Positions 1 through 36,009 of a stretch of DNA of 64,000 bases are shown piece by piece. Numbering within the stretch: the first letter of the stretch is position 1; every line of letters begins with the position of its first letter. The notes beneath the pieces were generated by a model, which saw only the letters and a list, made by a program, of their open reading frames with translations, made no database searches and was not told the origin of the DNA. The position numbers were made by a program, and so were the translations under genes. The DNA is taken from the NCBI GenBank assembly GCA_016180135.1, contig JACPBV010000004.1, positions 26,868 through 90,867 of the forward strand. The letters run 5' to 3'. This stretch comes from Candidatus Woesearchaeota archaeon (GTDB lineage Archaea; Nanobdellota; Nanobdellia; Woesearchaeales; JACPBV01).

Positions 1-1
1 T

Positions 2-241
2 TCCTGGCTCGAGACTGACCTGAAGGGCATAGCTCAGGAGCTCCTCTCGAAGGAGTCCCTCGCAAAGCGGAAGCTCTTCAGCTACAGCTATGTGGAAAAG
101 CTCTGGAACAGCTACAAAAGCGCAAAAGTCTATTACAGCCGCCAGCTTTGGACGCTGCTGAACTTTGAATTGTGGTCAAGAATCTACCTTGACAGGGAAG
201 ATATTGCTGACGGAGATATCCTGCTGAAGGATGTCCTTTAG
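2..241 (+). CDS. asparagine synthase-like protein, C-terminal fragment (gene starts upstream of window)
   Basis: Frame 2 is open from base 2 to TAG at 239-241. My translation ...LFSYSYVEKLWNSYKSAKVYYSRQLWTLLNFELWSRIYL... parallels the C-terminus of the full AsnB-type ORF at 7971-9884 (...GQKVWMLLNVEIWLREYF). Confidence 0.55.
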   Translation, partial: SWLETDLKGIAQELLSKESLAKRKLFSYSYVEKLWNSYKSAKVYYSRQLWTLLNFELWSRIYLDREDIADGDILLKDVL

Positions 242-248
242 TCGAATA

Positions 249-280
249 AACCTCCTAACCCCTAAACCTCCTAACCCCTA
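249..280. repeat. perfect 16-nt tandem duplication (aacctcctaaccccta x2) abutting the ATG at 281
   Basis: Read directly: 249-264 and 265-280 are identical. The tract is G-free. Confidence 0.8.
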
Positions 281-2229: not shown

Positions 2230-3135
2230 TTATTCCCCAGAACCGCCATCCAGCCTCAACACTGCCGACATTACAGCCCCCAACCCATAAGCCAGCGCAG
2301 TCATCAGCGCTATTACTGTTCCTGCTGTAGAAGGATCGATATGCAGCGATGTGAGCATCACAAAAAGCGCAGACTCCCTCAATCCCAATCCAGAAAGCGT
2401 GAAGGGGACAAAAGACAGCAGCGTCGCAGTGTTGAACACCACCACCAGCATAAAAAAAGGCGCCTTTCCGCCAATCGCATAAAAAAGCAGCAGGGGAACA
2501 AGCCCGCCGACCGCTATTTTTGAGGCAGTAAATATCAGATTGAGCGCCAGCGCCTTCCTTCCGACAGTAAAATACCCTTTCAAAGTCCTGTAGAAGCCGG
2601 TGAACTGCGCATCATACTTTCCCAGCAGTCTTTTTCGGACAAATTTTCTGGCCTTTTCCGATGCCAGGAAAAAACCCCCCAGCGCAAGAGCCGCAGCTAA
2701 AAGAAAAAAGAGCCCCAAAGCCTGCCCCGGAAGGAAAAGATAAGCCCCGATTATTGCAATCAGAAGGGTAAAAAAAAGTGAAGTGATTTTATTTGTGATG
2801 ATTGCCGCCAGGCTTTCTCCGATAGTAAGCCCCCGTTTCCTGAAATAGGGGATGATAATAAGGTCGCCTGCCCTGCCCGGCAGCAGAAGCCCTGCGCTCC
2901 AGGAGTAAAGATACCCTTGGATAGTTCCCTTCAGCGAAACTTTGGGAAACTGGCTTACAAGCACAAAGAGGCTCATCCCGTCGATGAGCAGTGTTGCGAT
3001 GATGGCTGCGGCAGCTAAAAAGAGCAGCAGCAAATCTCCCTTCCCTAAAATCTCCAGAACTTCCGCAGCCCCAACTTTAAAAAAAAAGAATGCCAGCAGG
3101 GCAGCGCTGACGGTCAGCTTGATCCAGAGTTTCAT
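2230..3135 (-). CDS. flippase-like / LPG-synthase-TM (UPF0104) family membrane protein
   Basis: Polytopic. MKLWIKLTVSAALLAFFFFKVG...LLPGRAGDLIIIPYFRKRGL is typical of this family. I trimmed the ORF-track start (3429) to Met99 (3135), because the upstream 98 aa lie in a degenerate repeat and run into the neighbouring gene. Confidence 0.65.
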   Translation of the reverse strand: MKLWIKLTVSAALLAFFFFKVGAAEVLEILGKGDLLLLFLAAAAIIATLLIDGMSLFVLVSQFPKVSLKGTIQGYLYSWSAGLLLPGRAGDLIIIPYFRKRGLTIGESLAAIITNKITSLFFTLLIAIIGAYLFLPGQALGLFFLLAAALALGGFFLASEKARKFVRKRLLGKYDAQFTGFYRTLKGYFTVGRKALALNLIFTASKIAVGGLVPLLLFYAIGGKAPFFMLVVVFNTATLLSFVPFTLSGLGLRESALFVMLTSLHIDPSTAGTVIALMTALAYGLGAVMSAVLRLDGGSGE

Positions 3136-3169
3136 GGTAAGAGGTTTTATCTTCTGGGAAATCCATCTC

Positions 3170-3290
3170 AACAGTAATCTTCTTCCGATGGGCGCATTCT
3201 CCCGATGGAAGGGTGTCTCAACAGGAATCTTTTTCCTGTGAAATGCTCCCTTAATAGGAATCTTCTCCCGCTGGAAAGGCTCTCCCGAAG
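3170..3290. repeat. degenerate ~33-nt tandem repeat in the spacer between two minus-strand genes
   Basis: Minus-strand units are ttccagcgggagaagattcctattaagggagca / tttcacaggaaaaagattcctgttgagacaccc / ttccatcgggagaatgcgccc.... Identity is about 50-60 percent by eye. Confidence 0.35.
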
Positions 3291-3296
3291 GAAAAT

Positions 3297-4208
3297 TTAT
3301 CTTTTCAGCATATCCGCTAAAAAGCCAAACAGCGTTATCTGGATTCCCGTCATGATGAACAGCGCGCTTAAGATGACCCTTGGGATTCCGCCGACATTCC
3401 CTGCAGTCAGGACAGAATACACTATCCACGCCCCGAGAACTATCCCCAGTCCGATAAAGAACATCCCCACCGCCCCGAAAAACTTCAGTGGCTCATAATC
3501 CCTGTAGATGCGTAAGATATTCATTCCGGCCCTCCCTGCATAGGAGAAAGGATTGCTTATCAGCCTGCTCTTATCCTTCCTTCGTGCGAAATGCACGGGC
3601 ACCTCAGCTATTTTAAGCTTTTGCTTTACTGCCCGGATGATCTGCTCCTGGGTGTAAGTGTGGAGAGAATAAACTGGCAGTCTCGCAGCCTCCGCAGTGA
3701 ACGCCCTAAACCCAGTCTGGCTGTCAGTTATCTTCTTCCCTGCGATGCCCGACACAACCATCGAAAAAGCCTTATTCCCGAATCTTTTCACCAAAGGCAT
3801 GCTTTCAATATGCCCCGTAAAGCGTGAGCCTAACACCAGATCAGCTTTCTTCTCAATAATCGGCCTGAGCAGCGAAGGTATGTCTTTTGCCAGATACTGC
3901 CCGTCAGCGTCGATGTGGACGATGATCTCAGCCCCCAGCCGTAAAGCTTCCTTCATCTCAGTCCTGAACGTCTCCCCTAACCCCTTATTTGTAGGATGAG
4001 AAACCACCTTTGCCCCGAGGCCAAGCGCAATCTTTCTCGTGTTATCCTTGCTCCCGTCATCAGCAACGAGGATGATTGCCTGAGGCAATATTTCCCTGAT
4101 GCCAATGATTGCATTGCCGATAGTCTTCTCTTCATTAAATGCAGGGATAGTAACAACTATCCTGGGATTTTTCCCGCCCATAAATTTCTCCGCTTTCTCT
4201 CCGCCCAT
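3297..4208 (-). CDS. GT2 glycosyltransferase, dolichyl/polyprenyl-phosphate sugar synthase-like, with C-terminal TM helices
   Basis: VVTIPAFNEEKTIGNAI...LVADDGSKDNT...HIDADGQY matches the GT-A DxD-type pattern, and there are two C-terminal TM segments. The start is set at Met22 (4208), so a TATA-like box at 4231-4238 lies 23-30 nt upstream. Confidence 0.8.
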   Translation of the reverse strand: MGGEKAEKFMGGKNPRIVVTIPAFNEEKTIGNAIIGIREILPQAIILVADDGSKDNTRKIALGLGAKVVSHPTNKGLGETFRTEMKEALRLGAEIIVHIDADGQYLAKDIPSLLRPIIEKKADLVLGSRFTGHIESMPLVKRFGNKAFSMVVSGIAGKKITDSQTGFRAFTAEAARLPVYSLHTYTQEQIIRAVKQKLKIAEVPVHFARRKDKSRLISNPFSYAGRAGMNILRIYRDYEPLKFFGAVGMFFIGLGIVLGAWIVYSVLTAGNVGGIPRVILSALFIMTGIQITLFGFLADMLKR

Positions 4209-4228
4209 AAGGGAAACTAAAAGAGAAT

Positions 4229-4240
4229 CATTTAAATAGG
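4229..4240. promoter_or_regulatory. palindromic TATA-like box (catttaaatagg) between divergent genes
   Basis: The core atttaaat is its own reverse complement. It lies 23-30 nt from the minus-strand ATG (4208) and 33-40 nt from the plus-strand ATG (4271). Confidence 0.4.
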
Positions 4241-4270
4241 TTTCCAACCTTTGCATCTCAAGAGCAGCCA

Positions 4271-6202
4271 ATGAGCATTTTCACAATCTTGCTATTCTTC
4301 CTCTACACCTACGGCCTAGGCTTTTCCATAACCTTCTTCTTCAAAAACGCAGAAAACTTCTTCGAAAGGCACATCATGAGGGTAGGGATCGGCCTTGCAG
4401 TGCTCCCCTTTCTCCTCGTCGTCCTGGACATTTTCAGAATTCCCCTCGACTGGAAGCTGGTTTTAGGCCTTTCCTTAGCCATCCCCATCTACCGCCTTCT
4501 GAAGGGCAGAAGGGGCATACCATCTAGCCTCAGTCTTCCGCAGCTTAAGGTTACCAGGTCCGGGCTTAACGCTCTTATTATTTTTATAATCTTCGTCATC
4601 ACCTTCTATATGTATTCCTCAGGCGCATTCAGCTACGCTTACCTCGAGGATGATGACCCCTGGGCGCATGCCGTCGGCGTAAAGTATGTGGCGATGGAAA
4701 AAAATTTTGATGACCCTGAAAACAACCTCTTTTACATTAAGACGTATCCTCCGGGATATGACGGCCTGCTCGGCATCCTCCACCAGACTTCCCCATCATT
4801 GCTGTGGACGATGAAGTTCTTTAATGCGCTTATCATCTCTTTAGGCATTTTCTTCTTCTATTATTTCGCAAAAAATTTCATGCAGAGCGAAAGGAAAGCC
4901 CTTTATGCCGCACTTGCCCTTGCCATGCTTCCTTCCTACTTGAGCCATTTCATCTGGGCGCATAGCCTGGTCATCACCCAATTCATCGTCTCCCTGTATT
5001 GCATTGAGATGCTCAGGCAGGAAAAGCGCTGGTCGCTCCCCATCGCATTAACGATAGCGGGAGCAGCTGTCGTCCAGCCTGACCAGCCGATTAAATTCCT
5101 GGTGATGTATATTATCTATTTCGCCATTAGCAGCATCGCAGAAAAAAAGTTCCAGTGGAGGCTTGCGCTTGCCGTCAAGTCCGGCTATCTTCTTTCGCTG
5201 GCATGGTGGGGCTTTAACGCCGGTAATTTCTTTAGCAGATTCTTCTCTTACAACCGTGCAAGGGCAGGGATAGATGCAGCAGCCTCATCATCATTATCAT
5301 CATCGTCATTATCCTCATCTTTGCTGGAAAAGCCGCTGCTTGAAAAAGCCTGGAGCGCCATTACCTCTACGTTCCCCCCCAACAGCGGAACAGCGACAAG
5401 AGCCTACACCTTCAATGATTTTTTTGTCGCAAAATCCCAGAACCTGATCAACAATCCTATCGGCATCGGCATTGCGCTTTCCCTTCTTGCGGTTATCGGA
5501 ATCCTCCTTATCCTTGCAGCCTGGAAAACGATGGGCAGGGAAAAAAAGCGATGGACTGCAATTGCTCTTTTTTGGCTTCTCTTCGCTTTTCTGGGAGTCA
5601 ACAGCCTCACCTTCCACCTTCCCGTCGGGCTTTTTGCATTCCGTTTTTGGATGCTGATGGCCATCCCCCTCTCGATCTTAGCGGGAGAGGGCATTGATTC
5701 AGTCGCCCGGTTGGGGAAGGGCATAGGGATTCCAAGGGCGCTCACTTCCATACTCCTCATCACTGCACTATTCTTCACAGGGGGGGTCCAGAAATATGCA
5801 GTAAACACCGCTCAATGGTATCCCGGCCAGTTCTGGACTTCAAACGAAGAGATTCAGGGCTATGTCTGGCTTACCACGCTTCCCGTAAACACCAAAGTTT
5901 TCTCATACTCTAACGACGAACAGGTCATCGGGATGGACAAGTTCAGCTGCCAGTGGTGCAGCGAAGTTGTTGAATTCAGAAAAGGCCTGCTGGAAAAGAA
6001 TATCTCAGAAGCCTATCCCTGGCTGAAGCAGCAAAACTACGAGTATGTGATGGTAGACGGGATGACGGTCAAAAACTTTCAGGCGCAGTATGGCAATGCT
6101 ACAGCGCAGCTGGTGAACCAAAAGATAAGCGAAATTGCCTCATCAGGAAAATTCCAGCCGGCATTCCAGAATCAGGGCGTGGTAGTCTTTAAGGTCATTT
6201 AG
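4271..6202 (+). CDS. polytopic membrane protein, GT-C-fold glycosyltransferase-like (ArnT/PMT/STT3-like), with a soluble C-terminal domain
   Basis: There are more than 10 predicted TM segments. An acidic first-loop motif YLEDDDPWAHAVGVKY resembles the GT-C catalytic loop. No WWDYG motif is present. A Ser/Leu microsatellite stretch (SSSLSSSSLSSS) is also present. Confidence 0.5.
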   Translation: MSIFTILLFFLYTYGLGFSITFFFKNAENFFERHIMRVGIGLAVLPFLLVVLDIFRIPLDWKLVLGLSLAIPIYRLLKGRRGIPSSLSLPQLKVTRSGLNALIIFIIFVITFYMYSSGAFSYAYLEDDDPWAHAVGVKYVAMEKNFDDPENNLFYIKTYPPGYDGLLGILHQTSPSLLWTMKFFNALIISLGIFFFYYFAKNFMQSERKALYAALALAMLPSYLSHFIWAHSLVITQFIVSLYCIEMLRQEKRWSLPIALTIAGAAVVQPDQPIKFLVMYIIYFAISSIAEKKFQWRLALAVKSGYLLSLAWWGFNAGNFFSRFFSYNRARAGIDAAASSSLSSSSLSSSLLEKPLLEKAWSAITSTFPPNSGTATRAYTFNDFFVAKSQNLINNPIGIGIALSLLAVIGILLILAAWKTMGREKKRWTAIALFWLLFAFLGVNSLTFHLPVGLFAFRFWMLMAIPLSILAGEGIDSVARLGKGIGIPRALTSILLITALFFTGGVQKYAVNTAQWYPGQFWTSNEEIQGYVWLTTLPVNTKVFSYSNDEQVIGMDKFSCQWCSEVVEFRKGLLEKNISEAYPWLKQQNYEYVMVDGMTVKNFQAQYGNATAQLVNQKISEIASSGKFQPAFQNQGVVVFKVI

Positions 6203-6330: not shown

Positions 6331-7761
6331 TCATCGAGGGAAAAAACTCTTCAGGAGCTCCCTTTCTTCTTTATGGATCCCCCCTAATGATGCTAAAGCG
6401 ATGCCGTAGACGAGGACTGCAAGGGGGACAAGGACAGCAATAGGCAGGAAATCAAGCCGCACGATGGCTATCCCCATGATGGCTGCTGAAAGGATTGGCT
6501 TGTAGCTTAGCCTGATGAGGTCCAGCCTGTAGCCGTGCTTCTGTGCGGAAAGGTAGAGCAGGATGAAGCTCAGCGCCTGCGAGATTACTGTCGCAAAAGC
6601 CGACCCCAGATAGCTTAAGGGCGGAATCAGTGCGAGATTCAGGATCACATTTGCTATTGAGGAAACGATGATAGCTTTGGTGAATGCCTGCTGCTGGTTG
6701 ATCGAGCTCAGAAGGTAGCCTAAGATGAAGTTGACAAACAGGAAGATGAAGGATAACGAAAGGATCTGCAGGACAATCCCTGATTCAGTGAACTGATGCT
6801 TGTAGAAAAACAGGATAAACCGCTGGGCAAGCAGGAATGTTCCGACGGAGATGGGGGCAGATGCAGCAACCATATAGTAAAACGATTTTTCGTAAAGCTT
6901 CATCAGCTCTTTTTTTGCGTTGAAATGATGGAACCGTGACATCGCAGGCACCGTCGCATTGATCACCGCAACAGGGATGAAGGAAATGCCGGACACGAGT
7001 GCAGAGCCTGCGCTGAACCATCCTGTTGCCTGATAGCTCTTGAGCCACGTCAGCATGACTTTATCGGTTTGCTGATACATCACCTCAAAGACCCGTGCTG
7101 CCCAGAACGGCAGGGAATGCATTGCCATAGATTTCCAGAGCTGGATATCTGCGCTGATGGCGGGCCTGAAGAAAAATTTCCAGCAAAGGAATCCGCTGAA
7201 GAGCAGAGTGATAATCTTTCCAAGGATCAGCCCCGCTAATAATCCTAATATCCCATACCCCCATGCAAGCGCAGCTGCGCCAAACACTAAGGCAGTAATC
7301 CTGTCAACAGCCATGGTGGAGACAGTAAACTCATTCCGCTCAAATGCCTTGAACACTACTCCGAGCATGAGGTGCATCTGGGAGATGAGCTCATGCGCCA
7401 TCACCAGGAAGATGACCCACAGGATTTCCTGGGTCTTTGGCCAAAGATAGCCCAGCGCAGCAGCTGCAGCATAAGTCCCAAGGATAAGCGCTGCCCTCAA
7501 TCCAAGCGCATTGCCGATAAGCTGTTTTGCCCTGTCTTTGTGCCTCGAGATCTCCCTGAGGAGGTAGGCCATGATCCCTGCGTGGGAAAAGACAACAAAA
7601 AGCCCGATGAAAGCGAACGCAAACGCATACTTCCCGTAGCCCACATCACCAAGATAGCGGGTGATGAGGATAATAAGGATAAAGGAAAGTATCTTGTTGA
7701 TTATTTCTGCCGTAAAAAGATATCCGGTGTTTTTTGCGATGATCTTTGCGGTGGACATCAT
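6331..7761 (-). CDS. MOP-superfamily oligosaccharide/polysaccharide flippase (Wzx-like)
   Basis: 476 aa with about 12-14 TM segments. The N-terminus IAKNTGYLFTAEIINKILSFILIILITRYLGDVGYGKYAF is typical of polysaccharide biosynthesis (Wzx) proteins. Confidence 0.8.
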   Translation of the reverse strand: MMSTAKIIAKNTGYLFTAEIINKILSFILIILITRYLGDVGYGKYAFAFAFIGLFVVFSHAGIMAYLLREISRHKDRAKQLIGNALGLRAALILGTYAAAAALGYLWPKTQEILWVIFLVMAHELISQMHLMLGVVFKAFERNEFTVSTMAVDRITALVFGAAALAWGYGILGLLAGLILGKIITLLFSGFLCWKFFFRPAISADIQLWKSMAMHSLPFWAARVFEVMYQQTDKVMLTWLKSYQATGWFSAGSALVSGISFIPVAVINATVPAMSRFHHFNAKKELMKLYEKSFYYMVAASAPISVGTFLLAQRFILFFYKHQFTESGIVLQILSLSFIFLFVNFILGYLLSSINQQQAFTKAIIVSSIANVILNLALIPPLSYLGSAFATVISQALSFILLYLSAQKHGYRLDLIRLSYKPILSAAIMGIAIVRLDFLPIAVLVPLAVLVYGIALASLGGIHKEERELLKSFFPR

Positions 7762-7970: not shown

Positions 7971-9884
7971 ATGTGCGGCATAGCTGGAATTTACAGCCTC
8001 AGCGGAAAGGAGGCACCCTCAGCAAGAGTCATCACAGAGATGGCAGACTCCATGGCTCATCGTGGCCCTGAAGATTCGGGGATCTATCTCGGCAAAGGGA
8101 TAGCATTTGGCCACAGGAGGCTTCGCATCCTTGATTTGTCAGAGAAAGGAAAGCAGCCGATGATGGACAGGGAAAAGGAGATAGTGATAACCTTCAACGG
8201 CGAAATTTACAATTTCCGGGATATCAGGGATGAGCTTATCAGCCTGGGATATTCTTTCTCTTCAGCGTCTGACACTGAAGTGATCCTCAGCGCTTACCGG
8301 CAGTGGGGGATTGAATGCATCCAAAGGTTCAACGGCATGTTTGCCTTTGGACTTTACGACGGGAGGAAGCAGAAGCTTTTTCTTGTGAGGGACAGGCTTG
8401 GGAAAAAGCCGCTTTACTATTCCATTGTGGATGGCGCTCTTATATTCGCTTCCGAAATTAAGGCGATTTTGAGATATCCTCATTTTGTTGCTGAGCCAAA
8501 TTGGAAAGCTATCTCTTCATATCTTTCTTTTAGGTATGTCCTCGGGAAAGATTCTTTCTTTAGCCGCATAGTAAAAGTCCTTCCCGGCCATTATCTTGAG
8601 ATCTCCGGCGGTAAGATTGATGAAAAAGAATATTGGGATATTCCGCTGGTTGCGAAAAAGGGTGATAGGGGCATAGCCTATTACAAAGCATCAATTAGAG
8701 AAAAATTAACCAGGGCAGTGAAGCTGAGGATGGTCAGTGATGTCCCTCTGGGGGCTTACCTGAGCGGCGGCCTTGATTCCAGCATAATTGTTGCCCTGAT
8801 GGCGCAGCTTACAGGAAAAGTGAGGACGTATTCTGTCGCATTTGACGTTGAGGGATATGATGAGCTGCAGTATGCTAAGCTCGTCGCAGAAAAGTTTAGC
8901 ACGGAGCACACGGAAATCAGGCTGAAGGCAGGAGACTATATGGGGGCGATGAAAGAGCTTATCAGATTCAAAGATGAGCCTCTTGCGGTCCCGAATGAAG
9001 TTCCCATCTACCTCATGTCAAAAGTGCTGAAAAAAGACATCACTGTTGTCCTCTCAGGGGAAGGCTCTGACGAGCTTTTCTATGGGTATGGGAGGCTTTT
9101 CAGGAGCCCCTTTGACTATGCCCGGCTGAAGATGCTTCCTGCAGGCCTGAGGAATTTATTTCTGAAATCTCTCGGAAAGAAATATGGCAGTAAATCATTC
9201 TCTTCTGAGATGGAGCATTTCCTTCACCTCTACAGCTATTTCCCGAATGGGGAGAAAAACAGCCTGTTCAATCCTTTTATGAAGTCGCTGTGCCGTGACG
9301 ATGAGGGCCTTCATGCGCTTTTCCGGAAATATTTTGACAGGGCGGAAAATCTAAATTATTATGACAAGATCAGCTATGTGTTTGAGAAGATCCACCTCGT
9401 CGGCCTTCTCGGAAGGCTGGATAATGCGACGATGGCTGCCGCTGTGGAGGCAAGGGCACCCTTTGTTGACCATGAGCTTGTCGAGTTTATGTTTAATGTC
9501 CCAAAAAAATACAAGCTGCACTGGAAGTCTGCTTTTTCTTTCTTCAGAGGTTTGCTCAAAAATTCTGACGAGATCAGCGAAAACCTGGATATCACCAAAT
9601 GGATATTAAGGGAAGCATTTAAGGATGATGTCCCCGAAAAGATTATCAGCAGGAAAAAACAGGGATTTCCTGTCCCGCTTGACGCATGGTTCAAGGGAAA
9701 ATTCATCAGCGACGCAAAGAAGTATCTTCTTGGCCCCGAAGCAAGGATAAGAAAGATTATTGACCAGCAGAATCTTGAATCATGGATAAACAGAAACCTT
9801 AATAACAGCGCAGGCACCTCCTTCGGTCAGAAAGTGTGGATGCTGCTGAATGTCGAAATATGGTTAAGGGAGTATTTTGGATGA
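7971..9884 (+). CDS. asnB: asparagine synthase (glutamine-hydrolysing) family amidotransferase
   Basis: The N-terminal MCGIAGIY has the catalytic Cys2. The PP-loop SGGLDSS is present. Length (637 aa) and C-terminal region are typical of AsnB. Confidence 0.9.
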   Translation: MCGIAGIYSLSGKEAPSARVITEMADSMAHRGPEDSGIYLGKGIAFGHRRLRILDLSEKGKQPMMDREKEIVITFNGEIYNFRDIRDELISLGYSFSSASDTEVILSAYRQWGIECIQRFNGMFAFGLYDGRKQKLFLVRDRLGKKPLYYSIVDGALIFASEIKAILRYPHFVAEPNWKAISSYLSFRYVLGKDSFFSRIVKVLPGHYLEISGGKIDEKEYWDIPLVAKKGDRGIAYYKASIREKLTRAVKLRMVSDVPLGAYLSGGLDSSIIVALMAQLTGKVRTYSVAFDVEGYDELQYAKLVAEKFSTEHTEIRLKAGDYMGAMKELIRFKDEPLAVPNEVPIYLMSKVLKKDITVVLSGEGSDELFYGYGRLFRSPFDYARLKMLPAGLRNLFLKSLGKKYGSKSFSSEMEHFLHLYSYFPNGEKNSLFNPFMKSLCRDDEGLHALFRKYFDRAENLNYYDKISYVFEKIHLVGLLGRLDNATMAAAVEARAPFVDHELVEFMFNVPKKYKLHWKSAFSFFRGLLKNSDEISENLDITKWILREAFKDDVPEKIISRKKQGFPVPLDAWFKGKFISDAKKYLLGPEARIRKIIDQQNLESWINRNLNNSAGTSFGQKVWMLLNVEIWLREYFG

Positions 9885-10020: not shown

Positions 10021-10758
10021 ATGAAAGCGATACTCTTATCGGCAGGAAAGGGAACAAGGATGTTGCCTTTGACGAAAAATACCCCCAAATGCCTTTTGCA
10101 TGTCGGCAATGGGTTGACGGTGCTGGAAACTCAGCTGGAGACTCTGAAAAAAGCCTCAATAAAAGATATTTGTATTGTTACTGGCTATTTATCTGATCAG
10201 GTTGAGGCAAAAGTCAGGCCTTATGAAAAGGACCTGAATATCAGGATAATCTATAACCCGTTCTATGATATCTCCAACAACCTGGTCTCCCTGTGGACAG
10301 CCAGCAGCCAGATGGACGGCGATTTTATGATCATCAACGGCGATGACCTCTTTCAGAAGTCAGTCATTGAAAAGCTTCTTGCTGTAAAGAGCAGTAGGTG
10401 CATGGTCATCGACCAGGAGCCTCCCTATCGGGAGGGAGATATGAAAGTCGAGATAGCCGGCGGCAGGATTGTCCGTGTCAGCAAGCAGATTCCCTCAGAA
10501 AAAGCAGCAGGAGAATCTATCGGCATGATGAAATTCACCAACGGCTCAAACAAACTCATCCAGGCAGTGCTGGACAAGATGGTCAGGAAAAAAGAAAATC
10601 TCCAGTCATTTTACCTGGAAGCCGTCAACGAGCTGATCAAGGAAGGCCATACTTTAGATTTTATCGCTATCCCGGCAAAAGACTGGGCAGAGATTGATTT
10701 CCATCCGGATTATGAGTTAGTGATGAAGAATATCGATGGGTTCCATAGGGGGATGTGA
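10021..10758 (+). CDS. sugar/alcohol-phosphate nucleotidyltransferase (LicC / IPCT-like NTP-transferase family)
   Basis: MKAILLSAGKGTRMLPLTKNTPKCLL is the G-rich NTP-transferase signature. The C-terminal WAEIDFHPDY resembles cytidylyltransferases of the LicC/IPCT type. Confidence 0.8.
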   Translation: MKAILLSAGKGTRMLPLTKNTPKCLLHVGNGLTVLETQLETLKKASIKDICIVTGYLSDQVEAKVRPYEKDLNIRIIYNPFYDISNNLVSLWTASSQMDGDFMIINGDDLFQKSVIEKLLAVKSSRCMVIDQEPPYREGDMKVEIAGGRIVRVSKQIPSEKAAGESIGMMKFTNGSNKLIQAVLDKMVRKKENLQSFYLEAVNELIKEGHTLDFIAIPAKDWAEIDFHPDYELVMKNIDGFHRGM

Positions 10759-10794: not shown

Positions 10795-10828
10795 TATTTC
10801 CACGCCTTTATCATCCAGCTCCCGCCCC
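10795..10828. repeat. 34-bp perfect direct repeat, copy 1 (flanks the PIN/AbrB cassette)
   Basis: tatttccacgcctttatcatccagctcccgcccc is identical to 11553-11586. Confidence 0.9.
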
Positions 10829-11242
10829 TTTATCGTGCTCAATTCTTGAAAGAAATTCCGCAGGCGTCAGGATAGAAACTCCCTGGTATTGTTTTAGTTT
10901 GAGAAGGTGCCTGTCTCCAGTCACAATGAACTCTGCCTTTGCGGCAATTGCGCAGGACAGCACCTTGTCATCCTTAGGGTCTTCTTGGACAGCAATAACT
11001 TGGATGGTAGGTTCGATTATTGTTGAAATTGTTTTGAAAAGGCTTATCTGACGTTGGATAAACTCTTCAGGCACATCAAAGTCCCTTTTTTGGCTTTCTT
11101 CCATCTCCAAAAGCATCTCTGGTGAGGTAAAGCTGCTGATCTGCTGCTGGAGCGCAAGCCGGACAATGGCGTGGGGTTTTCCTAGCTCCCAAAAAATTGA
11201 AGAGATCAGGATATTGGTATCCAGCACAACCCTTTCAGGCAT
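10811..11242 (-). CDS. PIN-domain toxin (VapC-like)
   Basis: VVLDTNILISS (N-terminal acidic Asp) ... FIVTGDRHLLKL... matches the PIN_3-type pattern. It lies immediately downstream of an AbrB-type antitoxin. Confidence 0.8.
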   Translation of the reverse strand: MPERVVLDTNILISSIFWELGKPHAIVRLALQQQISSFTSPEMLLEMEESQKRDFDVPEEFIQRQISLFKTISTIIEPTIQVIAVQEDPKDDKVLSCAIAAKAEFIVTGDRHLLKLKQYQGVSILTPAEFLSRIEHDKGAGAG

Positions 11243-24829: not shown

Positions 24830-24858
24830 GCGCATTGCACCTCATAAGAGGTGTCTTT

Positions 24859-24955: not shown

Positions 24956-24988
24956 ATCTTTCTATGCTAAATGCTTCTTCTACTTGCC

Positions 24989-25789
24989 TTATTTTCCTTC
25001 TTCCCGCATAAGCTCCCTGACAGTCATTGGCATCATCCCTTGGGTTATGCACCACTGGACAAATTCCTCAAATTTCTTAACAAATGGCTGCCCGGTTTTT
25101 CTGACAACAAGCGATGGATGCACAGCAAACCCGGACACATTGATGAACTCCCACGGATGGAAATAAAGGTTAAGATACCCCCCACTAATAAGCGAAAGCC
25201 TCGAACACGCCTTTGCATATGCTAACGGCATATTCCTCAGCCATATCCATGAAAAAGGCAGCCTCAATAACGGGCTTACTGATACCGGAATCACAGTTAT
25301 GCCTTCAGTAGTATGAATTTTTCTCGTCTTGAAAAAAAGATTGTAGTGCCCGGGAATATATGTTGGATGGTAAGAGCTGTCATAAAGTAACCCTAACCTC
25401 CCCAGGACGGGGTAGGGCGGGCGTGACATCTGCGGAGCCCGGAACGAAACAACCTTCATACCGGCAATCCCCTCGAGCTTTTCCTTTGCCTTATGCAGCC
25501 GTGCATAAGCCTCTTCTTCTTTCATCTTCCCATACCTGTCTTTATGCGAGTATCCATGCAGCCCTATCTCATGCCCCCGGGCAATTGCTTTTTTCATAAG
25601 CTCAGGGCAATATGCGGCAAACTCAGCTGTTGTAAAGAGCGTCGCTTTGCAGCCATTCCTCTCTAATATCCTCAGGATCTGCTGGAATCCTTTCTTGCTG
25701 ATCTCCATGCAGACTTCCATCGGAACCTGAAGCCCAAACTCATTGGCGATAAACTCTTCGAGGTCAAAAGTCAGGAGCAGGTATTTCAT
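24989..25789 (-). CDS. polysaccharide deacetylase family protein (NodB-like / DUF3473-type)
   Basis: LLTFDLEEF...ATLFTTAEFAAYCPELMKKAIARGHEIGLHGYSH has the TFD and H-x-x-H style motifs. Confidence 0.8.
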   Translation of the reverse strand: MKYLLLTFDLEEFIANEFGLQVPMEVCMEISKKGFQQILRILERNGCKATLFTTAEFAAYCPELMKKAIARGHEIGLHGYSHKDRYGKMKEEEAYARLHKAKEKLEGIAGMKVVSFRAPQMSRPPYPVLGRLGLLYDSSYHPTYIPGHYNLFFKTRKIHTTEGITVIPVSVSPLLRLPFSWIWLRNMPLAYAKACSRLSLISGGYLNLYFHPWEFINVSGFAVHPSLVVRKTGQPFVKKFEEFVQWCITQGMMPMTVRELMREEGK

Positions 25790-26823
25790 TTTCCCAGCAC
25801 CTCAAGGATTGCATCGGCAAATGACTGGACATCAGCTGCCCCTGCATGCCTTCCATCCTTTAAGGTCACAAGCCTCCCTTCCTTCAGGACTTCCCTGTGC
25901 GATCCGACGTCAAAGGCCACAGCAGGCCTGCCGCAGGCAGCTGCCTCCGCAATGGGGATGTCAAACCCTTCCCAGAGTGATGCAGTCACATAGGCGTCGC
26001 ATGCAGCATAATACGCAGGCAGCTCAGTATCGGGAACAAACCCTGCAAAGATAATGCCCGGTGCTGCCATCTCCTGAAGTTTCCTTGTGTAGGCCGGAAA
26101 GGTATGCTTCCCGATGATGATTAGCTTTACCGCAGGCTTTTTTCCCTGGACAATCTTGAATGCATCTATCAGGAGGTGGATCCCTTTATGTGGGCTGATT
26201 CTTCCGACGTAAAGCAATATCCGCTCCTGCCTGCCGATGCCGTGGATCTTCCTGACAGCGCTCCCGTCAGTCCCTTTGTGGAACCTTCTGGCATCTACAG
26301 GAACATACTCCACTCTGCTGGCAATGCCCGTCTCCCGCTCAAATTCCGCCTGGAGAAATTTTGAGATCGAGATAGCAGTATCGCACTTCTTTGCATAATG
26401 GTTATTCAGCGCATTGAACATTGTAAGGTAGAGCTTTTCAAAAAACGAATACGTATCGGTGATGCCAACGCCTGCATGATGATAAATATATTCAACTTTG
26501 GGATTCAGCCGTTTTGCGGAAGCTGCAAGCAGGGTCATCGGATACAGGTGTGCGATAATCCGGTCATAAGCGCTGAGTTTCCTTGCGTAAGCCCTCACAA
26601 TAGGGAAGTCTAAAAACATCAGAAGCCGGTAGATCCTCTGCCAGAAAGGCTTTTTCGGCATCCCCAGGATAACCACTTTAGCCCCTTTTGGCTTGATGCT
26701 CCCGTCGAGAGTGAACACATCGACAGTATGCCCTTCTTTCACAAGCTGCAGAGCCTGCTGCTCGACCAGCCGGTCTATGCCGGAATACTCAAAGAATGTT
26801 GGCGTCAGGATGGCGATTTTCAT
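25786..26823 (-). CDS. glycosyltransferase family 4
   Basis: MKIAILTPTFFEYSGIDRLV... ILLYVGRISPHKGIHLLIDAF...ACDAYVTASLWEGFDIPIAEAAACGRPAVAFDVGSHREV. Confidence 0.85.
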   Translation of the reverse strand: MKIAILTPTFFEYSGIDRLVEQQALQLVKEGHTVDVFTLDGSIKPKGAKVVILGMPKKPFWQRIYRLLMFLDFPIVRAYARKLSAYDRIIAHLYPMTLLAASAKRLNPKVEYIYHHAGVGITDTYSFFEKLYLTMFNALNNHYAKKCDTAISISKFLQAEFERETGIASRVEYVPVDARRFHKGTDGSAVRKIHGIGRQERILLYVGRISPHKGIHLLIDAFKIVQGKKPAVKLIIIGKHTFPAYTRKLQEMAAPGIIFAGFVPDTELPAYYAACDAYVTASLWEGFDIPIAEAAACGRPAVAFDVGSHREVLKEGRLVTLKDGRHAGAADVQSFADAILEVLGK

Positions 26824-26853
26824 TGTTGAGTCAGCATCTCCCTGCGGGCGGTT

Positions 26854-27003
26854 AAATGCAAATATTCCACCAGTCTTTGACTGGTGGTTGACGCTCGATT
26901 AGACGTTGGGAATATTTGCCTTCTCAGAAATCCGACCCGAGCGACCGAAGGGAGCGAGCAATCCCCCCCGTCTGTGACGGGGGGTGGTCGGATTTCTTTT
27001 GAA
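26854..27003 (+). repeat. family-D two-domain structured repeat, copy D1 (~150 nt)
   Basis: Domain 1 is gcaaatattcc/ggaatatttgc enclosing ccaccagtc-ttt-gactggtgg. Domain 2 is agaaatccgacc/ggtcggatttct enclosing cgagcgaccgaagggagcgagc and ccccccgtc-tgt-gacgggggg. Confidence 0.7.
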
Positions 27004-27058
27004 GTGTCTCCTCTGCCCTCCGCCAGAGATAAGAGGGGCGCCGCAGTAAAACCTCCAG

Positions 27059-27628
27059 CTATTTTTTTAGCCTGCACCGGACGACGAGAGACTGCCCGAA
27101 GAGCCTGCTGGAGATAAACGGAACTCTAATCACAGGAATAAATCCTCTGTTAAAGGTGATTTTCTCGATGGTGAAAAAATCGGGGAGCTGCCAGAGGAAG
27201 AAGGGGTTGACGTGGTGGGGCTGCTCCCGTGCATTGAATTCGATGAACTTGTTCCGGAAAAGATACAGCGCCCGGTTGAAGAGATTATTGATATTAGGGG
27301 TCGAAAATACAAATATTCCGCCGTTCTTCAGGATTCTCTTTACTTCTCTGAAGAAATGATACTTGTTTTCCAGATGCTCAACAACTTCTGTGGAGATTGC
27401 CGCATCAAAGCTCCCGTCAGGATAATCTATGCTCTTGTTGAAATCCATAATCTTTGCTTTTCCGTCAAAATTATCAGCAAGGTCGCAGTAGCTCACATGG
27501 GTAAACCCTTTCTTCCAGAGCTCAGTCACAATAAACCCCCGTCCGCAGCCAAGATCCACTATCTTTTTCTCCCTTCCGACATCGTCAAGAAGCCCCAGTG
27601 CAGCCTCATAAGTCCCCGGATACGCCAT
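27059..27628 (-). CDS. class I SAM-dependent methyltransferase
   Basis: IVDLGCGRGFIVTELWKKGFTHVSYCDL and GGIFVFSTPN are present. Confidence 0.75.
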   Translation of the reverse strand: MAYPGTYEAALGLLDDVGREKKIVDLGCGRGFIVTELWKKGFTHVSYCDLADNFDGKAKIMDFNKSIDYPDGSFDAAISTEVVEHLENKYHFFREVKRILKNGGIFVFSTPNINNLFNRALYLFRNKFIEFNAREQPHHVNPFFLWQLPDFFTIEKITFNRGFIPVIRVPFISSRLFGQSLVVRCRLKK

Positions 27629-32305: not shown

Positions 32306-32620
32306 GTGGCAGATGCAAAGCTCTTCGGGCTTATCTTTTTATTGATCGCCGTCTTCTCAACGTTCGCCTTTGGAGTTTCCGGCTTTAAAACTATCATGGG
32401 AATAATTTTTGCTTTCTTCCTCCCAGCATACCTTATTCTCAAAAAAAGCGCCTTTTCCGAAAACGAGAAATTATTTTTTTCAATTTTCCTAGGCGCAGTC
32501 CTTTTTCCCGCCTTAATCTATTGGCCTGCCGTCATCATGCCGTTGAAGGCAGCTGTTCCCTTAGTATTTCTGCTTGTCTCAGGAGCGGGATTAATTTTTC
32601 TTCTGAAATCAAAGAAATAG
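32306..32620 (+). CDS. small 3-4 TM membrane protein paired with the upstream GT-C-like gene
   Basis: The ORF-track frame 32189-32620 overlaps the upstream gene by 86 nt. GTG at 32306 is a plausible start, but the start is uncertain. Sequence: ...FLPAYLILKKSAFSENEKLFFSIFLGAVLFPAL.... Confidence 0.4.
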   Translation: MADAKLFGLIFLLIAVFSTFAFGVSGFKTIMGIIFAFFLPAYLILKKSAFSENEKLFFSIFLGAVLFPALIYWPAVIMPLKAAVPLVFLLVSGAGLIFLLKSKK

Positions 32621-32861: not shown

Positions 32862-33800
32862 TCAGTTTTTCAGCAGCCTTCTGAAATAACTGATTGTCTC
32901 CCGCAGCCCATCATCCAGCTCTACCTTTGGCTCCCATCCAAGCTTCTCTTTTGCCAGGGAGATATCAGGGTTCCTCCTTTCAGGGTCATCTTCAGGCAGC
33001 GGCTTGAAGGAAATCTTTGATGTTGAGCCCGCTAAAGATATTATCTTTTCCGCAAGCTCAAGGATGGTGAGCTCATGGGGATTCCCCAGATTCACAGGGC
33101 CGATAAAATCAATAGTATTGTCCATCATGGTTATCATTCCGTCGACGAGGTCAGCGGCAAAGCAGAAGCTCCTGGTCTGCTTTCCCTTGCCGTAGATGGT
33201 TATCGGCTCATTCCGGAGCGCCTGCACGATGAAGTTAGACACAACCCTCCCGTCATCCATCGCCATGTTTGGCCCGTAGGTATTGAAGATCCTCACGATC
33301 CTGATCGGAATCTTATGCTCACGGTGGTAATCCATCATAAAGGTCTCCGCCACCCTCTTCCCTTCGTCATAGCACGCCCGTGGCCCGAGCATATTGACAT
33401 TGCCCGGGTATTTTTCAGTCTGGGGATGCACAGCAGGGTTCCCATAGACTTCAGATGTTGAAGCCTGCAGTATTTTTGCCCTGCACCTTTTTGCTATCCC
33501 GAGCATATGGAACATCCCTACCGTCGAAGTAAGCAGCGTCTTGATGGGGTCGAACTGGTAATGTTTCGGAGACGCCGGGCATGCCAGATTATAGATCTCA
33601 TCAACTTCCAGAACAATCGGCTGGATAATATCGTGCCTGGCCACCTCAAAATCTTTGTTCCCCATAAGATGGTTGATATTCCTCTGGCTCCCGGTAAAGA
33701 AATTGTCCAGGCAGATGACATGGCTGCCCTTCTTCAGGAGCGCTTCGCAGAGATGGCTGCCGATAAACCCTGCCCCGCCAGTGACCAAGATTGTTTTCAT
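32862..33800 (-). CDS. uxs: UDP-glucuronate decarboxylase (UDP-xylose synthase)
   Basis: [48 protein letters not shown] and YDEGKRVAE are all typical UXS motifs. Confidence 0.9.
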
Positions 33801-33872
33801 GAAAAGAAAGATTCCCCCGTTGTTTAAAAAGATTGCTGGGATTTAAGATGTAATCTCGGGATGCCAATACTT

Positions 33873-34274
33873 CTAACTGTGATGGTTGCTCTTCTCTGGG
33901 CTTTCCGCAGATTTTTCCCTTCTCGACAGGGCAAACGCCCCGATGCCTATTCCCAAGATCGGCAGCAGCCATGCCTGGTAAATTGCTGCCATCCCAATAA
34001 TCCTGAGATTATAGCCAATCACGCCAAAAAAAGCCATGCCTAAGATAGTTCCCATCACAAAACGCTCCAGGAAAGGCATTTCCTTCCGGAAAAGATACAG
34101 CAGAAAAAATCCCGGAATAACGAAAAGCCAGAAAAGCGACAAGCTCATCTTAAAGATGACAAAAAAACTTCCCCTGTAAAAAACAGCTTGAAGGAGGATA
34201 GCAGCTGCTGCAAACCCTAATCCTATCTTCTTCCCGTCTTCCTTAAGCTGTTGCAGCATTGCCAAAGCAGTCAA
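33873..34274 (-). CDS. small 4-TM membrane protein paired with the upstream GT-C-like gene
   Basis: It overlaps the 3-prime end of 34243-36009. ...VIPGFFLLYLFRKEMPFLERFVMGTILGMAFFGVIGY... is similar to the 32306-32620 product and to the N-terminus of the 4271 ORF. Confidence 0.45.
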   Translation of the reverse strand: MTALAMLQQLKEDGKKIGLGFAAAAILLQAVFYRGSFFVIFKMSLSLFWLFVIPGFFLLYLFRKEMPFLERFVMGTILGMAFFGVIGYNLRIIGMAAIYQAWLLPILGIGIGAFALSRREKSAESPEKSNHHS

Positions 34275-36009
34275 CTCCCGGTTTTGTATTCTCTACGATA
34301 GACACAAGCGGATTGGAATAAACCTCCTTTAACCACTCATTTTTCAGCAGCATGTCCCTGATTGCCAGATTATACTGGGCAAGCGCAGGCTGTGAGGCTG
34401 CCTTGTCGAAATAATAATATTCCGCAGCGCATAAATCTTTGAGCTGCTCTTCCTGAGGCACAGGATTATAGGGCTGATATTCCGCCAGGCAGGAATAAGA
34501 ATTGTTCTTCGGCTTGAGATTAAAGTCAAAATAACAGAAGGAAAAAAAGCCGTTCGGATGGAGATACACTGGATACCCGTCAACAAGGTTGAACTCATAG
34601 GCTCTCCTTAATTCCTTCGACTGAAGCGCCTGGATGTAAGGCTTCACCCTGATGTTGAACGCAACCCTCTCAGAGTTATAGAGCGGCGCATTATGGGTCA
34701 GCGCATCAGAGTAAAAATAATGGACAGCAGATTCTTTAGGGATGTTTTTTGATATCCACTGCAGCCCTTCCCAGTCGTAAGCGTTCATGATCCCCTGCCC
34801 GACGTTGGTGTTCCCGAATACAGACTGCCCAAAAATTCCGATGAGGATGATAGAGGCGATGAACACTATCGGCGATGGGGTTTTTTTCAGCAATAATCCT
34901 ATTGTGCTATAGGCGGCAAATCCAAAAAAGAACGACAGGTAAATGAACCAGAATAACCGGTGCGCATACGCCCTCTTCCCGAAGCCCAGCAGGATGAGAT
35001 AGCCTAAAAGAAAGCAGAACAGCGAGATGAGCGGCGCAAGGATATGCTCTTTTTTGGACAGGAGGAAAAACACAATCCCTGCCAGCGCAATGATCCCGAA
35101 GATGCCGAGGTTGATGAGGTTAAATTCAGGATACCCTCCTGCCCACTGCGCAGGATCCCAGGTGCTTCTGAACCCCTCAGAGAGGAGGAATGATTTGGAA
35201 AATACCATGAGAGAATAAAAGCTGAGGATGCCGGTAAGCAAAGCCAGCAGGATAATTTTTTTAAAAAGCCCCGATTCAATGTTCTTTGCCTTCCAGACAT
35301 GAAATCCTATCATTCCGGCAAAAAACAATCCTGCCCAGGTGAATTCCGGCTGGTGCACTAATGCAGTAGCAGAAAAAAACAGCGCAAGAGGCGCCACAGA
35401 GCGTTCCTCATGAAACTTGGCCATCGCCCAAAAAGCAGCCAGCATCGTCATAATTCCCGCTAACAGCAGCCAATATCCCCAGAAGATGAGCGGGGTGAGC
35501 TTAGCGGACAGCATCAGCAGTCCTGCAGGCAGCGCAAGCATCGCGATCTTTTTGCTCGACCGCCTCCAGATGAAATATGCTGCAAGGATCGCAAGGAGGA
35601 AAGACAGCACCGCTAGAAAAGGCAGCGCATCAAAAACCTCAATTCCTGCAGCTATGCTGAGTGTCGCAGCGAGGTGATACAGCAATGGCGGATGGGTGTC
35701 TAACACTCCCTCATAGCCCCCGATAGACCATGGAGCTGCCCATTTCACCCCGCCTGTTTCCTTTGCATATTGCGTCATCGCCTGGTGGAAAAATGCATCG
35801 GACGCAAGATACGATGTTGGAAACTCATGCTCAATCTTATGCTGCCATGGCTGCCCTAAAGCGATAAAGAGGAACACGATTGAAAAAATGACTATCAGCC
35901 CGGCCTCAAAATCAAAGAGTCTTTTTTTCTTTGGCTGCAGAAGATTGAGGGAAGATGGCGTAGGCAGTACATCGGGCGTATGAAGATTATGCTGGTGCTC
36001 TTCCTCCAT
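34243..36009 (-). CDS. polytopic membrane protein, GT-C-like (putative glycosyltransferase)
   Basis: 588 aa with more than 10 TM segments. First-loop motif: YLASDAFFHQAMTQY. A TATA-like ggtatataaacc lies at 36031-36042, upstream on the minus strand. Confidence 0.5.
   Translation of the reverse strand: MEEEHQHNLHTPDVLPTPSSLNLLQPKKKRLFDFEAGLIVIFSIVFLFIALGQPWQHKIEHEFPTSYLASDAFFHQAMTQYAKETGGVKWAAPWSIGGYEGVLDTHPPLLYHLAATLSIAAGIEVFDALPFLAVLSFLLAILAAYFIWRRSSKKIAMLALPAGLLMLSAKLTPLIFWGYWLLLAGIMTMLAAFWAMAKFHEERSVAPLALFFSATALVHQPEFTWAGLFFAGMIGFHVWKAKNIESGLFKKIILLALLTGILSFYSLMVFSKSFLLSEGFRSTWDPAQWAGGYPEFNLINLGIFGIIALAGIVFFLLSKKEHILAPLISLFCFLLGYLILLGFGKRAYAHRLFWFIYLSFFFGFAAYSTIGLLLKKTPSPIVFIASIILIGIFGQSVFGNTNVGQGIMNAYDWEGLQWISKNIPKESAVHYFYSDALTHNAPLYNSERVAFNIRVKPYIQALQSKELRRAYEFNLVDGYPVYLHPNGFFSFCYFDFNLKPKNNSYSCLAEYQPYNPVPQEEQLKDLCAAEYYYFDKAASQPALAQYNLAIRDMLLKNEWLKEVYSNPLVSIVENTKPGVDCFGNAATA

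Follow-up and report, generated by a model that had tools for sequence, protein, structure and literature searches.

Four large polytopic membrane proteins are encoded in a glycan-biosynthesis locus of a Woesearchaeota archaeon, and the question raised by the locus is what such proteins do there. The stretch of DNA analysed (the window, 64,000 nucleotides) is C44:26868-90867, where C44 is contig JACPBV010000004.1 of GCA_016180135.1, a 1.51 Mb assembly in 44 contigs that is 88% complete. Gene coordinates are window positions unless prefixed with a contig (C44, C26 etc.), and the features are collected in Table 1. The proteins, here called P0001 to P0004, are encoded at 4271, 15938, 30706 and 34243, respectively. 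They are predicted, from structural models for P0001 and P0004 and from family matches for P0002 and P0003, to be glycosyltransferases (GTs) of the GT-C type and not transporters. The reading that we favour, at a probability of roughly 0.78, is that the conserved surface-glycan locus to which they belong carries out extracytoplasmic glycosylation of surface glycoconjugates in the manner of the Gtr and Arn systems.

Fold and kinship of the polytopic proteins

AlphaFold2 models were made of P0001 and P0004, and the other two proteins were placed through Pfam, P0002 by DUF2079 and P0003 by PMT_2/DUF6541. The P0001 model, built from a 31-sequence alignment, had a predicted local distance difference test (pLDDT) value of 86.6 and a predicted template-modelling score (pTM) of 0.89, and it includes a C-terminal extracytoplasmic alpha/beta domain. 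The corresponding values for P0004, whose alignment held 16 sequences and whose C-terminal domain is Cys-rich, were 69.5 and 0.68. When compared with the PDB by Foldseek, P0001 matched human and yeast STT3, DPY19, PglB, ArnT and AftA at E-values of 4e-10 to 1e-4, the top 15 matches all being GT-C enzymes. P0004 matched STT3, AglB, PglB, ALG12, ArnT, AftA, DPY19, AftD, Pmt, Emb and PimE, from E 3e-7 upwards, and here the top 28 were all GT-C enzymes. The GT-C probability was ~1.0 for both proteins.

The family assignments by sequence differ in strength. P0002 is a clear member of DUF2079 (PF09852, an uncharacterised predicted membrane family), with 166.5 bits against a cut-off of 28.2 over profile positions 1-399 of 459, but it carries in addition an N-terminal extension of about 150 aa. 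P0003 barely passes two cut-offs (PMT_2, 26.3 bits against 26.1; DUF6541, 29.5 against 29), and its homologues are annotated as GT39 by NCBI or as DUF6541. P0001 scores 25.5 bits with PMT_2, barely below the cut-off, and 8/31 of its relatives match DUF6541 and 4/31 match PMT (PF02366). One of 16 relatives of P0004 matches PMT_2 (E 2e-5), and P0004 itself does not. Beyond this, P0001 and P0004 matched nothing in Pfam, NCBIfam or PDB sequence searches, and searches of PDB sequences with single sequences and with family profiles returned nothing significant. No PMT or MIR domain was found in the four proteins, and none has a Pfam match beyond the transmembrane (TM) core. In a scan of the whole genome the PMT_2 model also touched the DUF2079 protein (21.3 bits, 2e-4) and both AglB genes.

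The families are not small. At least 675 homologues of P0001 were found, and all those with a source name come from Woesearchaeota or Nanoarchaeota. A word-indexed search gave 17 homologues of P0004; a profile search of 1.84 billion representatives gave 451 clusters at 50% identity, among which 236 had E <= 1e-30, and P0004 therefore belongs to a sizeable family that has no name. In the library searched we found no paper naming DUF2079 or DUF6541, and the accession PF09852 occurs in one paper. The extension of P0002 (residues 1-155) contains about 4-5 TM segments and lies outside the Pfam model; it was seen in 5/6 orthologues examined, the orthologue in locus L014 of another genome being without it.

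Kinship among the four was assessed by profile-profile comparison of family alignments with hhalign. P0003 was linked to P0004 (98.6%, E 1.1e-15, 392 columns) and to P0001 (97.7%, E 2.2e-12, 458 columns), and P0004 to P0001 (96%, E 4.7e-9, 410 columns). The relationship is visible in this type of comparison only: pairwise phmmer searches with the four proteins against all open reading frames (ORFs) of the genome gave no cross-matches at E <= 10, and the family hidden Markov models gave none among the four when run against the same ORFs. P0001, P0003 and P0004 thus aligned appear to be ancient paralogues that form a DPANN-centred branch bordering on the PMT/PMT_2/DUF6541 group. DUF2079 was not linked to this trio in hhalign (E ~1e-3, probability 7-18%), no direct link being claimed, and by its profile P0002 would represent a separate GT-C lineage.

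All three pairwise alignments bring the same residues of the first external loop into register, with the consensus D-[PA]-x-x-H-x-A. D129 of P0001 corresponds to D38 of P0003 and D71 of P0004, and H133 to H42 and H75, within the segments E126-D-D-D129-P-W-A-H133, Y34-G-E-V-D38-A-A-S-H42 and Y67-L-A-S-D71-A-F-F-H75. The Asp is invariant in the aligned sequences of all three families (120/120, 50/50 and 151/151 for P0001, P0003 and P0004, respectively), and the His is retained in 113/120, 50/50 and 99/156. Both models place the Asp in the loop behind the first core TM helix or immediately beyond it: helix 129-143 of P0001 opens with D129, and D71 is the second residue of helix 70-85 in P0004. 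This is the position of the catalytic Asp in ArnT, PglB and PMT, and the residue is a candidate for the catalytic one in each family. P0002 has a different first-loop motif, S-T-G-Y-D-L-G-V-Y-D-Q, of which D-L-G-x-Y-D-Q is conserved in seven DUF2079 sequences.

Much of this bears on the original prediction, made from the letters of the DNA alone, which had read the four polytopic ORFs as GT-C-like and proposed a comparison with PglB/AglB, ArnT, PMT and DUF2079. The ORFs are where it placed them, and Foldseek and Pfam found GT-C enzymes and answered the question of transporters in the negative. Its idea of a distinct paralogous family holds insofar as three of the proteins are remote homologues, but these stand at the edge of a GT39/GT83-like group (PMT/PMT_2/DUF6541) and so are not wholly distinct. 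The three do share a first-loop motif, and the peptides quoted for it (DDPWAHAVG, DAASHYAVA and DAFFHQAMT) are present, but for the gene at 4271 it had been written one residue out of register. The lack of a WWDYG motif in the four was confirmed by a motif search, which found nothing WWDxG-like in them, and they have no STT3 Pfam match either. The search for a bona fide aglB elsewhere in the genome yielded two true AglB genes on other contigs, C26:13750-17034 and C22:50812-54066, the only two long genes with PF02516 (STT3). These paralogues, of 1,084-1,094 aa, share 26% identity; their motifs are WWDIG and WWDFG, and both have long acidic low-complexity N-termini. Two ordinary PMT_2 proteins are encoded at C39:23233-25098 and C2:24334-26361, with the first-loop motifs W-D-E and F-D-D. 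Together with the four proteins of the locus, the two AglB and the two PMT_2 bring the number of GT-C enzymes encoded by the 1.5-Mb genome to at least eight.

Small membrane partners and recurrent neighbours

P0003 and P0004 are each accompanied by a small protein with four TM segments (4-TM). An ORF of approximately 105-137 aa follows both types of GT-C gene in 17/17 loci of other genomes, and the two partner families match each other in hhalign (96.9%, E 1.9e-10, 87 columns). P0001 has at residues 1-90 an extra N-terminal module of three helices, modelled with high confidence and not included in its homology to P0003 and P0004. In the 631-column profile of P0001 this N-terminus is the best match of both partner profiles (E 7e-5 and 2e-3), the former value being that of the P0004 partner, which aligns with columns 19-84. 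Against the N-terminus alone the partners gave E-values of 3.4e-6 and 5.6e-5. The alignments share their register around a conserved E-[RK], and in nine controls run against other TM-rich regions no E-value was below 0.026. On these results we consider the homology of the two partner families solid, judged by their profiles; that the partner module is fused as the N-terminus of P0001 is likely, not proven.

Other relationships were considered for these segments. The N-terminal extension of P0002 proved unrelated to the partner module (E 0.2-0.5). Residues 25-67 of P0001 (window ~4343-4471), within the segment that resembles the partners, matched Sec61-gamma/SecE weakly over a K-x-x-x-x-F-x-E-R...G-x-G helix; the E-value was 0.14, and the match is probably due to chance. 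Neither Pfam, at any meaningful E-value, nor the PDB sequences gave a match to the partners. An orthologue of the 33873-34274 gene, at L016:4009-4389, has a weak DUF1616 match (E 0.005, profile positions 4-116 of 307), which may be a lead to a wider kinship of the partner. The P0001 gene is split in one genome (G024), but because both pieces end at contig edges the split is ascribed to an assembly break and gene fission was rejected.

Conservation was surveyed in 61 genomes of the same order. The P0001, P0003 and P0004 families had matches in 35, 27 and 29 of these, respectively. P0003 and P0004 were found together in 26 genomes, one without the other in 1 and neither in 34, and the pairing holds outside the family of the source genome (12/1/0/34). 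Most loci examined have the two genes arranged tail to tail, within a few kb of each other. The genes at 30706 and 34243 thus behave as an obligate pair. A GT9 gene is the usual upstream neighbour of P0003, and the two are adjacent in five loci of other genomes.

The GT2 genes also recur. The product of the GT2 gene at 3297 matches AglJ (TIGR04182, 2e-48) and a dolichyl-phosphate hexose transferase (2e-27) and can be aligned with ArnC (8vxh) along its whole length; for that at 18443 the best match is the Dol-P-Man synthase of P. furiosus (5mlz, 2e-14), followed by ArnC and GtrB. Each is encoded together with a GT-C protein, 3297 with 4271 and 18443 with 15938, and the arrangement recurs in relatives. 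An orthologue of 3297 adjoins the P0001 orthologue in 9/18 loci and another such GT2 does so in about five more (~14/18). A short AglJ/DPMS-type GT2 is next to the P0004 orthologue, or one gene away, in ~8/17 loci, often with a short-chain dehydrogenase/reductase (SDR), and the neighbours of DUF2079 in L014 and L015 are similar to the methyltransferase and GT2 found here. Flippase candidates keep the same company: UPF0104 follows the GT2 in five loci, strong Wzx matches (1e-94 to 1e-144) flank the P0001-type gene in three, and weaker MOP-type matches are near it in two others. By analogy with known systems, GT2, flippase candidates and GT-C would together be the genetic signature of three-component extracytoplasmic glycosylation.

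Extent, conservation and gene content of the locus

The locus spans approximately 39 kb, its right edge being at window position 36009. A second AsnB gene and a further GT4 gene lie just upstream of the window, and the start is therefore placed at C44:24011, ~2.9 kb outside it. To the left are genes for small proteins with one N-terminal TM segment and for a helix-turn-helix regulator. In three ORFs in series at C44:21202-23929 (472, 158 and 197 aa) a short basic leader precedes the one hydrophobic segment, which is N-terminal; they have no Pfam match and may encode pilin-like or other surface proteins at the border of the glycan locus. Beyond 36009 there are a weak match to the glycine-cleavage-T C-terminal domain, an Fe-S cluster protein, a thioesterase and a copper ATPase. 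Named homologues of the window proteins come from Woesearchaeota and Nanoarchaeota metagenome bins.

In a related genome (G009) the four GT-C genes share a contig, over a ~40 kb span and in the gene order seen here, and in another (G003) they lie within ~44 kb; the island is thus an inherited family-level locus and no recent acquisition. Recent horizontal acquisition is unsupported, the GC content across 1-36009 (0.45-0.52) being the same as in the remainder of the window and the locus being syntenic across genera of the family. DUF2079 had matches in 10/61 genomes, eight of them above the cut-off and all eight in the family of the source genome, ie in 8/14 genomes of that family, and it is essentially absent from the remaining order. 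We conclude that this is a conserved cell-surface glycan locus of one Woesearchaeota family (DPANN).

The gene content was checked by Pfam and NCBIfam scans of all long ORFs (Table 1). The glycan or surface-polymer island of the original prediction is real, and nearly the whole of its inventory was found again: three GT4, two GT2 and one GT9, Wzx and the UPF0104 protein, four methyltransferases, one deacetylase, gmd, UXS, two further SDRs and a 6-dehydrogenase. Of the two AsnB-type amidotransferases listed, both exist but only that at 7971 is complete in the window, the other being a 241-bp tail. Three nucleotidyltransferases had been counted, whereas the scans contain only two NTP_transferase genes (10021 and 20232) and the ORF scans no third. 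The radical SAM/SPASM enzyme, the CDP-alcohol phosphatidyltransferase and the PIN/AbrB pair were missing from that list. Its description of the GT-C genes as unusually many stands as a trait of this archaeal family, but not as a peculiarity of this genome alone.

Table 1. Features of the locus (feature; position; strand; remarks). S-adenosylmethionine is abbreviated SAM, nucleoside diphosphate NDP and cytidine diphosphate CDP.
Feature	Position	Strand	Remarks
GT4 upstream of window	C44:24011-25195		Precedes partial AsnB; GT4 2e-49
AsnB-type amidotransferase, 3' end	1..241	+	Gene start C44:25195; Asn_synthase 1.8e-101
GT4, 573 aa	281..2002	+	Glycos_transf_1, 2e-29
UPF0104/LPG_synthase_TM flippase-like membrane protein	2230..3429	-	PF03706 9e-23; TIGR00374; downstream of GT2
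GT2, AglJ/ArnC/dolichyl-phosphate hexose synthase-like	3297..4271	-	Divergent from GT-C gene 4271
GT-C 1, P0001, 643 aa	4271..6202	+	No Pfam match; AlphaFold2 model
Wzx/MOP-family flippase	6331..7761	-	Polysacc_synt 8e-36; convergent with GT-C 1
AsnB-type glutamine amidotransferase	7971..9884	+	Pfam/NCBIfam
Sugar- or alcohol-phosphate nucleotidylyltransferase	10021..10758	+	NTP_transferase
PIN toxin and AbrB/MazE-type antitoxin	10811..11588	-	Inserted mid-locus, outside glycan pathway
SAM methyltransferase	11552-12337	-	Family scan
GT4	12334-13473	-	Family scan
Radical SAM/SPASM enzyme	13620..14687	-	Family scans
CDP-alcohol phosphatidyltransferase-family membrane enzyme	14962..15657	-	Archaetidylinositol-phosphate synthase model 5e-12, far below cut-off
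GT-C 2, P0002, 662 aa	15938..17926	-	DUF2079 PF09852, E 1.5e-48
Methyltransferase	17919-18440	-	Directly upstream of DUF2079, same direction
GT2, DPMS/ArnC/GtrB-like	18443-19378	-	Upstream of methyltransferase 17919 and DUF2079
SDR	19315	-	Nucleotide-sugar block 19315..23693
Sugar-1-P nucleotidylyltransferase (NTP_transferase)	20232	-	Nucleotide-sugar block 19315..23693
SDR	21235	-	Nucleotide-sugar block 19315..23693
NDP-sugar 6-dehydrogenase	22221	-	Nucleotide-sugar block 19315..23693
Methyltransferase	23935	-	Block 23935..27628
Polysaccharide deacetylase	24989	-	Block 23935..27628
GT4	25786	-	Block 23935..27628
Methyltransferase	27059	-	Block 23935..27628
GDP-mannose 4,6-dehydratase gmd	28001-28990	+	TIGR01472, 427 bits, above equivalog cut-off
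GT9	29290-30507	+	Upstream of GT-C 3
GT-C 3, P0003, 522 aa	30706..32274	+	DUF6541 3e-7, PMT_2 1e-5, each barely over cut-off
4-TM partner of GT-C 3	32306..32620	+	ORF open from 32189, overlaps GT-C 3' end
UDP-glucuronate decarboxylase UXS	32862..33800	-	Human UXS1 match, E 1.4e-119
4-TM partner of GT-C 4	33873..34274	-	Overlaps 3' end of GT-C gene 34243
GT-C 4, P0004, 588 aa	34243..36009	-	No Pfam match; AlphaFold2 model

A few minor features were noted in the course of the scans. Pfam coverage of the GT4 at 281-2002 is limited to residues 358-543; its long N-terminal half includes a (GECK)n stretch, encoded at 1040-1156 by a 12-bp tandem repeat of nine copies with 83% matches. The PIN/AbrB pair sits between the nucleotidyltransferase gene and the methyltransferase-GT4 operon. 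The ORF at 24660-25055 (131 aa) is basic, of low complexity and without a family match, and looks spurious, reading as non-coding; once it is discounted, a gap of ~450 bp (24525-24989) separates the methyltransferase and deacetylase genes.

Proposed pathway and its alternatives

Three-component systems consisting of a GT2, a flippase and a GT-C enzyme are known from bacteria: GtrA/GtrB/Gtr* of Shigella and Salmonella, ArnC/ArnE-F/ArnT, CsbB/GtcA/YfhO and the GT136 system of C. youngae (PMC11127046, PMC8035078). The present locus resembles them in having a GT2 of the polyprenyl-phosphate sugar synthase type beside GT-C genes, together with candidate flippases, and its partners match GtrA or ArnE/F in size and TM count. 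It differs in that the partner is apparently fused to the GT-C enzyme in one paralogue and that two paralogous GT-C genes form an obligate convergent pair. The setting is archaeal, so the carrier would be dolichol, unlike in the bacterial systems. An archaeal precedent for a Dol-P-sugar synthase working with an outer-face transferase is provided by AglD/AglS (PMC4973528). AglS of Haloferax volcanii is a distantly PMT-like Dol-P-mannose mannosyltransferase acting on the S-layer N-glycan (PMC4973528, PMC3871713); from its description it is likewise a polytopic enzyme other than AglB that uses a Dol-P-sugar on an outer-face glycan downstream of a GT2 synthase. The Woesearchaeal proteins, in contrast, make up families of their own, one of them without a Pfam model, and have D-[PA]-x-x-H and no DE-type motif.

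Among the wider GT-C enzymes, PMT (GT39), ArnT/PMT_2 (GT83) and DUF6541 share with the proteins of the locus a GT-C_A-type architecture and an Asp where the first external loop begins. PMTs work as dimers of paralogues (Pmt1-Pmt2), which is a precedent for the P0003/P0004 pair. They are set apart by a MIR domain and by DE in place of D-[PA]-x-x-H, and the four proteins have no PMT match; P0001 and P0004 fall below every Pfam threshold, those of PMT_2 and DUF6541 included. STT3, AglB and PglB (GT66) are the best structural neighbours of both models and are similar in size and in having a C-terminal external domain, but they differ in their WWDYG-type motif and STT3 Pfam match.

On this basis the following route may be envisaged. 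In the cytoplasm the nucleotidyltransferases, the SDRs including gmd and UXS, the 6-dehydrogenase, AsnB, the methyltransferases and the deacetylase would supply activated and modified sugars, from which GT4, GT9 and GT2 enzymes would assemble lipid-linked intermediates. The two GT2 proteins of the AglJ/DPMS/ArnC/GtrB type would load single sugars onto dolichyl phosphate. The lipid-linked sugars would then be brought to the outer face, for which Wzx, the UPF0104 protein and the small 4-TM partners are the candidate flippases, and there the four GT-C enzymes would move sugars to a surface glycoconjugate. By analogy we infer that the donors used by these enzymes on the outer face are single sugars on dolichyl phosphate. 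The most plausible acceptors would be glycans or Ser/Thr-rich regions of the giant surface proteins of the organism. Small 4-TM proteins that work with GT-C enzymes are GtrA, ArnE/F and Rv3789 (PMC11127046), and by comparison the partner may be a structural subunit, a donor flippase or a hand-off factor. A more elaborate proposal, which we hold to be rather improbable, is that the partners are Dol-P-sugar flippases or hand-off factors docked on the GT-C enzymes, and fused to the one encoded at 4271, and that in addition the products of 30706 and 34243 and the two partners form one hetero-oligomeric machine, comparable with Pmt1-Pmt2 or EmbA-EmbB.

Several observations weigh against the proposed route. 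The template-modelling scores (TM-scores) to solved GT-C structures are only 0.4-0.5, so that the assignment is to a fold class and not to any single family, and confidence in the P0004 model is medium. Scores from profile-profile comparison of polytopic proteins are open to inflation by hydrophobic composition, against which the controls argue without excluding it. The co-occurrence of P0003 and P0004, with a Fisher p of 2e-16, is not corrected for phylogeny. Support for homology between the partners and the N-terminus of P0001 is no more than moderate, with probabilities of 63-88% for one partner family and 14-66% for the other. GtrA (PF04138) was rejected as the identity of the partners, no match to it being found on them or anywhere in the locus. 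The partners also lack an SMR/ArnE-F or any other Pfam match, and no homology to GtrA, ArnE/F or Rv3789 was detected. In this genome no GT2 gene adjoins 34243 or 30706, and no initiating phosphoglycosyltransferase was found among the locus genes scanned.

The acceptor may be different. Given the CDP-alcohol phosphatidyltransferase and the GT4 genes, a serious alternative, although in our judgement an unlikely one, is that the locus makes a lipid-anchored glycopolymer and does not decorate proteins. Such a product would be comparable to the phosphatidylinositol mannosides, lipomannan and lipoarabinomannan of mycobacteria or to a lipoglycan like glycosylphosphatidylinositol. The CDP-alcohol phosphatidyltransferase would then make a phospho-alcohol lipid head group, GT4 enzymes, of which the locus has several, would add the first sugars in the cytoplasm, and the GT-C enzymes would extend the chain outside from polyprenyl-phosphate sugars, like PimE, Mpt, Emb and Aft. 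The phosphatidyltransferase gene adjoins DUF2079 both here and in L014, the nucleotidyltransferase at 10021 resembles inositol-1-P cytidylyltransferase (4e-18), DUF2079 has a weak NCBIfam match to a 'cell surface glycopolymer formation protein', and the Foldseek matches include AftA, AftD, EmbA-C and PimE. Those family matches nonetheless all score far below the curated cut-offs, STT3-type protein glycosyltransferases give the best fold matches and the genome encodes many candidates for giant surface glycoproteins. The two views differ on the acceptor only, the same enzyme mechanism being compatible with either.

The donor could also be of another kind. STT3, PglB and AglB head the structural neighbours of both models, a Wzx flippase gene is convergent with 4271 and no Wzy-type polymerase was recognised in the locus, so some of the four might use diphosphate-linked oligosaccharides as AglB-independent oligosaccharyltransferases, ligases or Wzy-like polymerases, and would then transfer or polymerise entire units in place of single sugars from Dol-P-sugar. 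We consider this improbable: the four have neither a WWDxG motif nor an STT3 match, PF02516 being found at two other loci of the genome only, the recurrent neighbours are GT2 enzymes resembling Dol-P-monosaccharide synthases, and the affinity in sequence is to PMT, PMT_2 and DUF6541, which use monophosphate donors. That the polytopic proteins are transporters or other membrane proteins, present in a glycan locus by chance, could be argued from the lack of any Pfam, NCBIfam or PDB sequence match for two of the four. In both Foldseek searches, however, transporters appeared only with probabilities of <=0.35 and TM-scores of ~0.1, ranked below the 15 to 28 GT-C matches, and the invariant acidic residue at the canonical first-loop position and the profile links to PMT_2 and DUF6541 also speak for enzymes. 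This explanation is largely refuted, and we give it next to no weight.

Outer-face glycosylation by Gtr- or Arn-like GT-C enzymes remains the preferred reading, and it concerns organisms for which the surface matters greatly: DPANN archaea depend on contact with a host, and their surfaces bear giant, probably glycosylated proteins. To our knowledge almost nothing is known of archaeal enzymes, other than AglB and AglS, that attach sugars at the outer face of the cell, and we know of no enzyme assigned to archaeal O-glycosylation. As of 2016, there was no description of O-mannosylation in archaea (PMC4973528). What is new here is the co-occurrence of P0003 and P0004, the homologous 4-TM partners, the probable fusion in P0001 and the flanking GT2 genes that resemble dolichol-phosphate-sugar synthases. 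With this locus come three GT-C families, unnamed, widespread and related to one another, each with a candidate for the catalytic residue, and also an obligate pair of GT-C genes and a new family of small membrane partners; as far as their profiles indicate, P0001, P0003 and P0004 are uncharacterised DPANN-centred GT-C families, all three of which would carry the new partner module. Their addition to Pfam and CAZy is possible and would allow many DPANN proteins now called 'hypothetical' or 'GT39' to be re-annotated. If the partners do deliver donors, they would constitute a new class of lipid-linked monosaccharide translocator, and a concrete candidate for the Dol-P-monosaccharide flippase of organisms that use dolichol.

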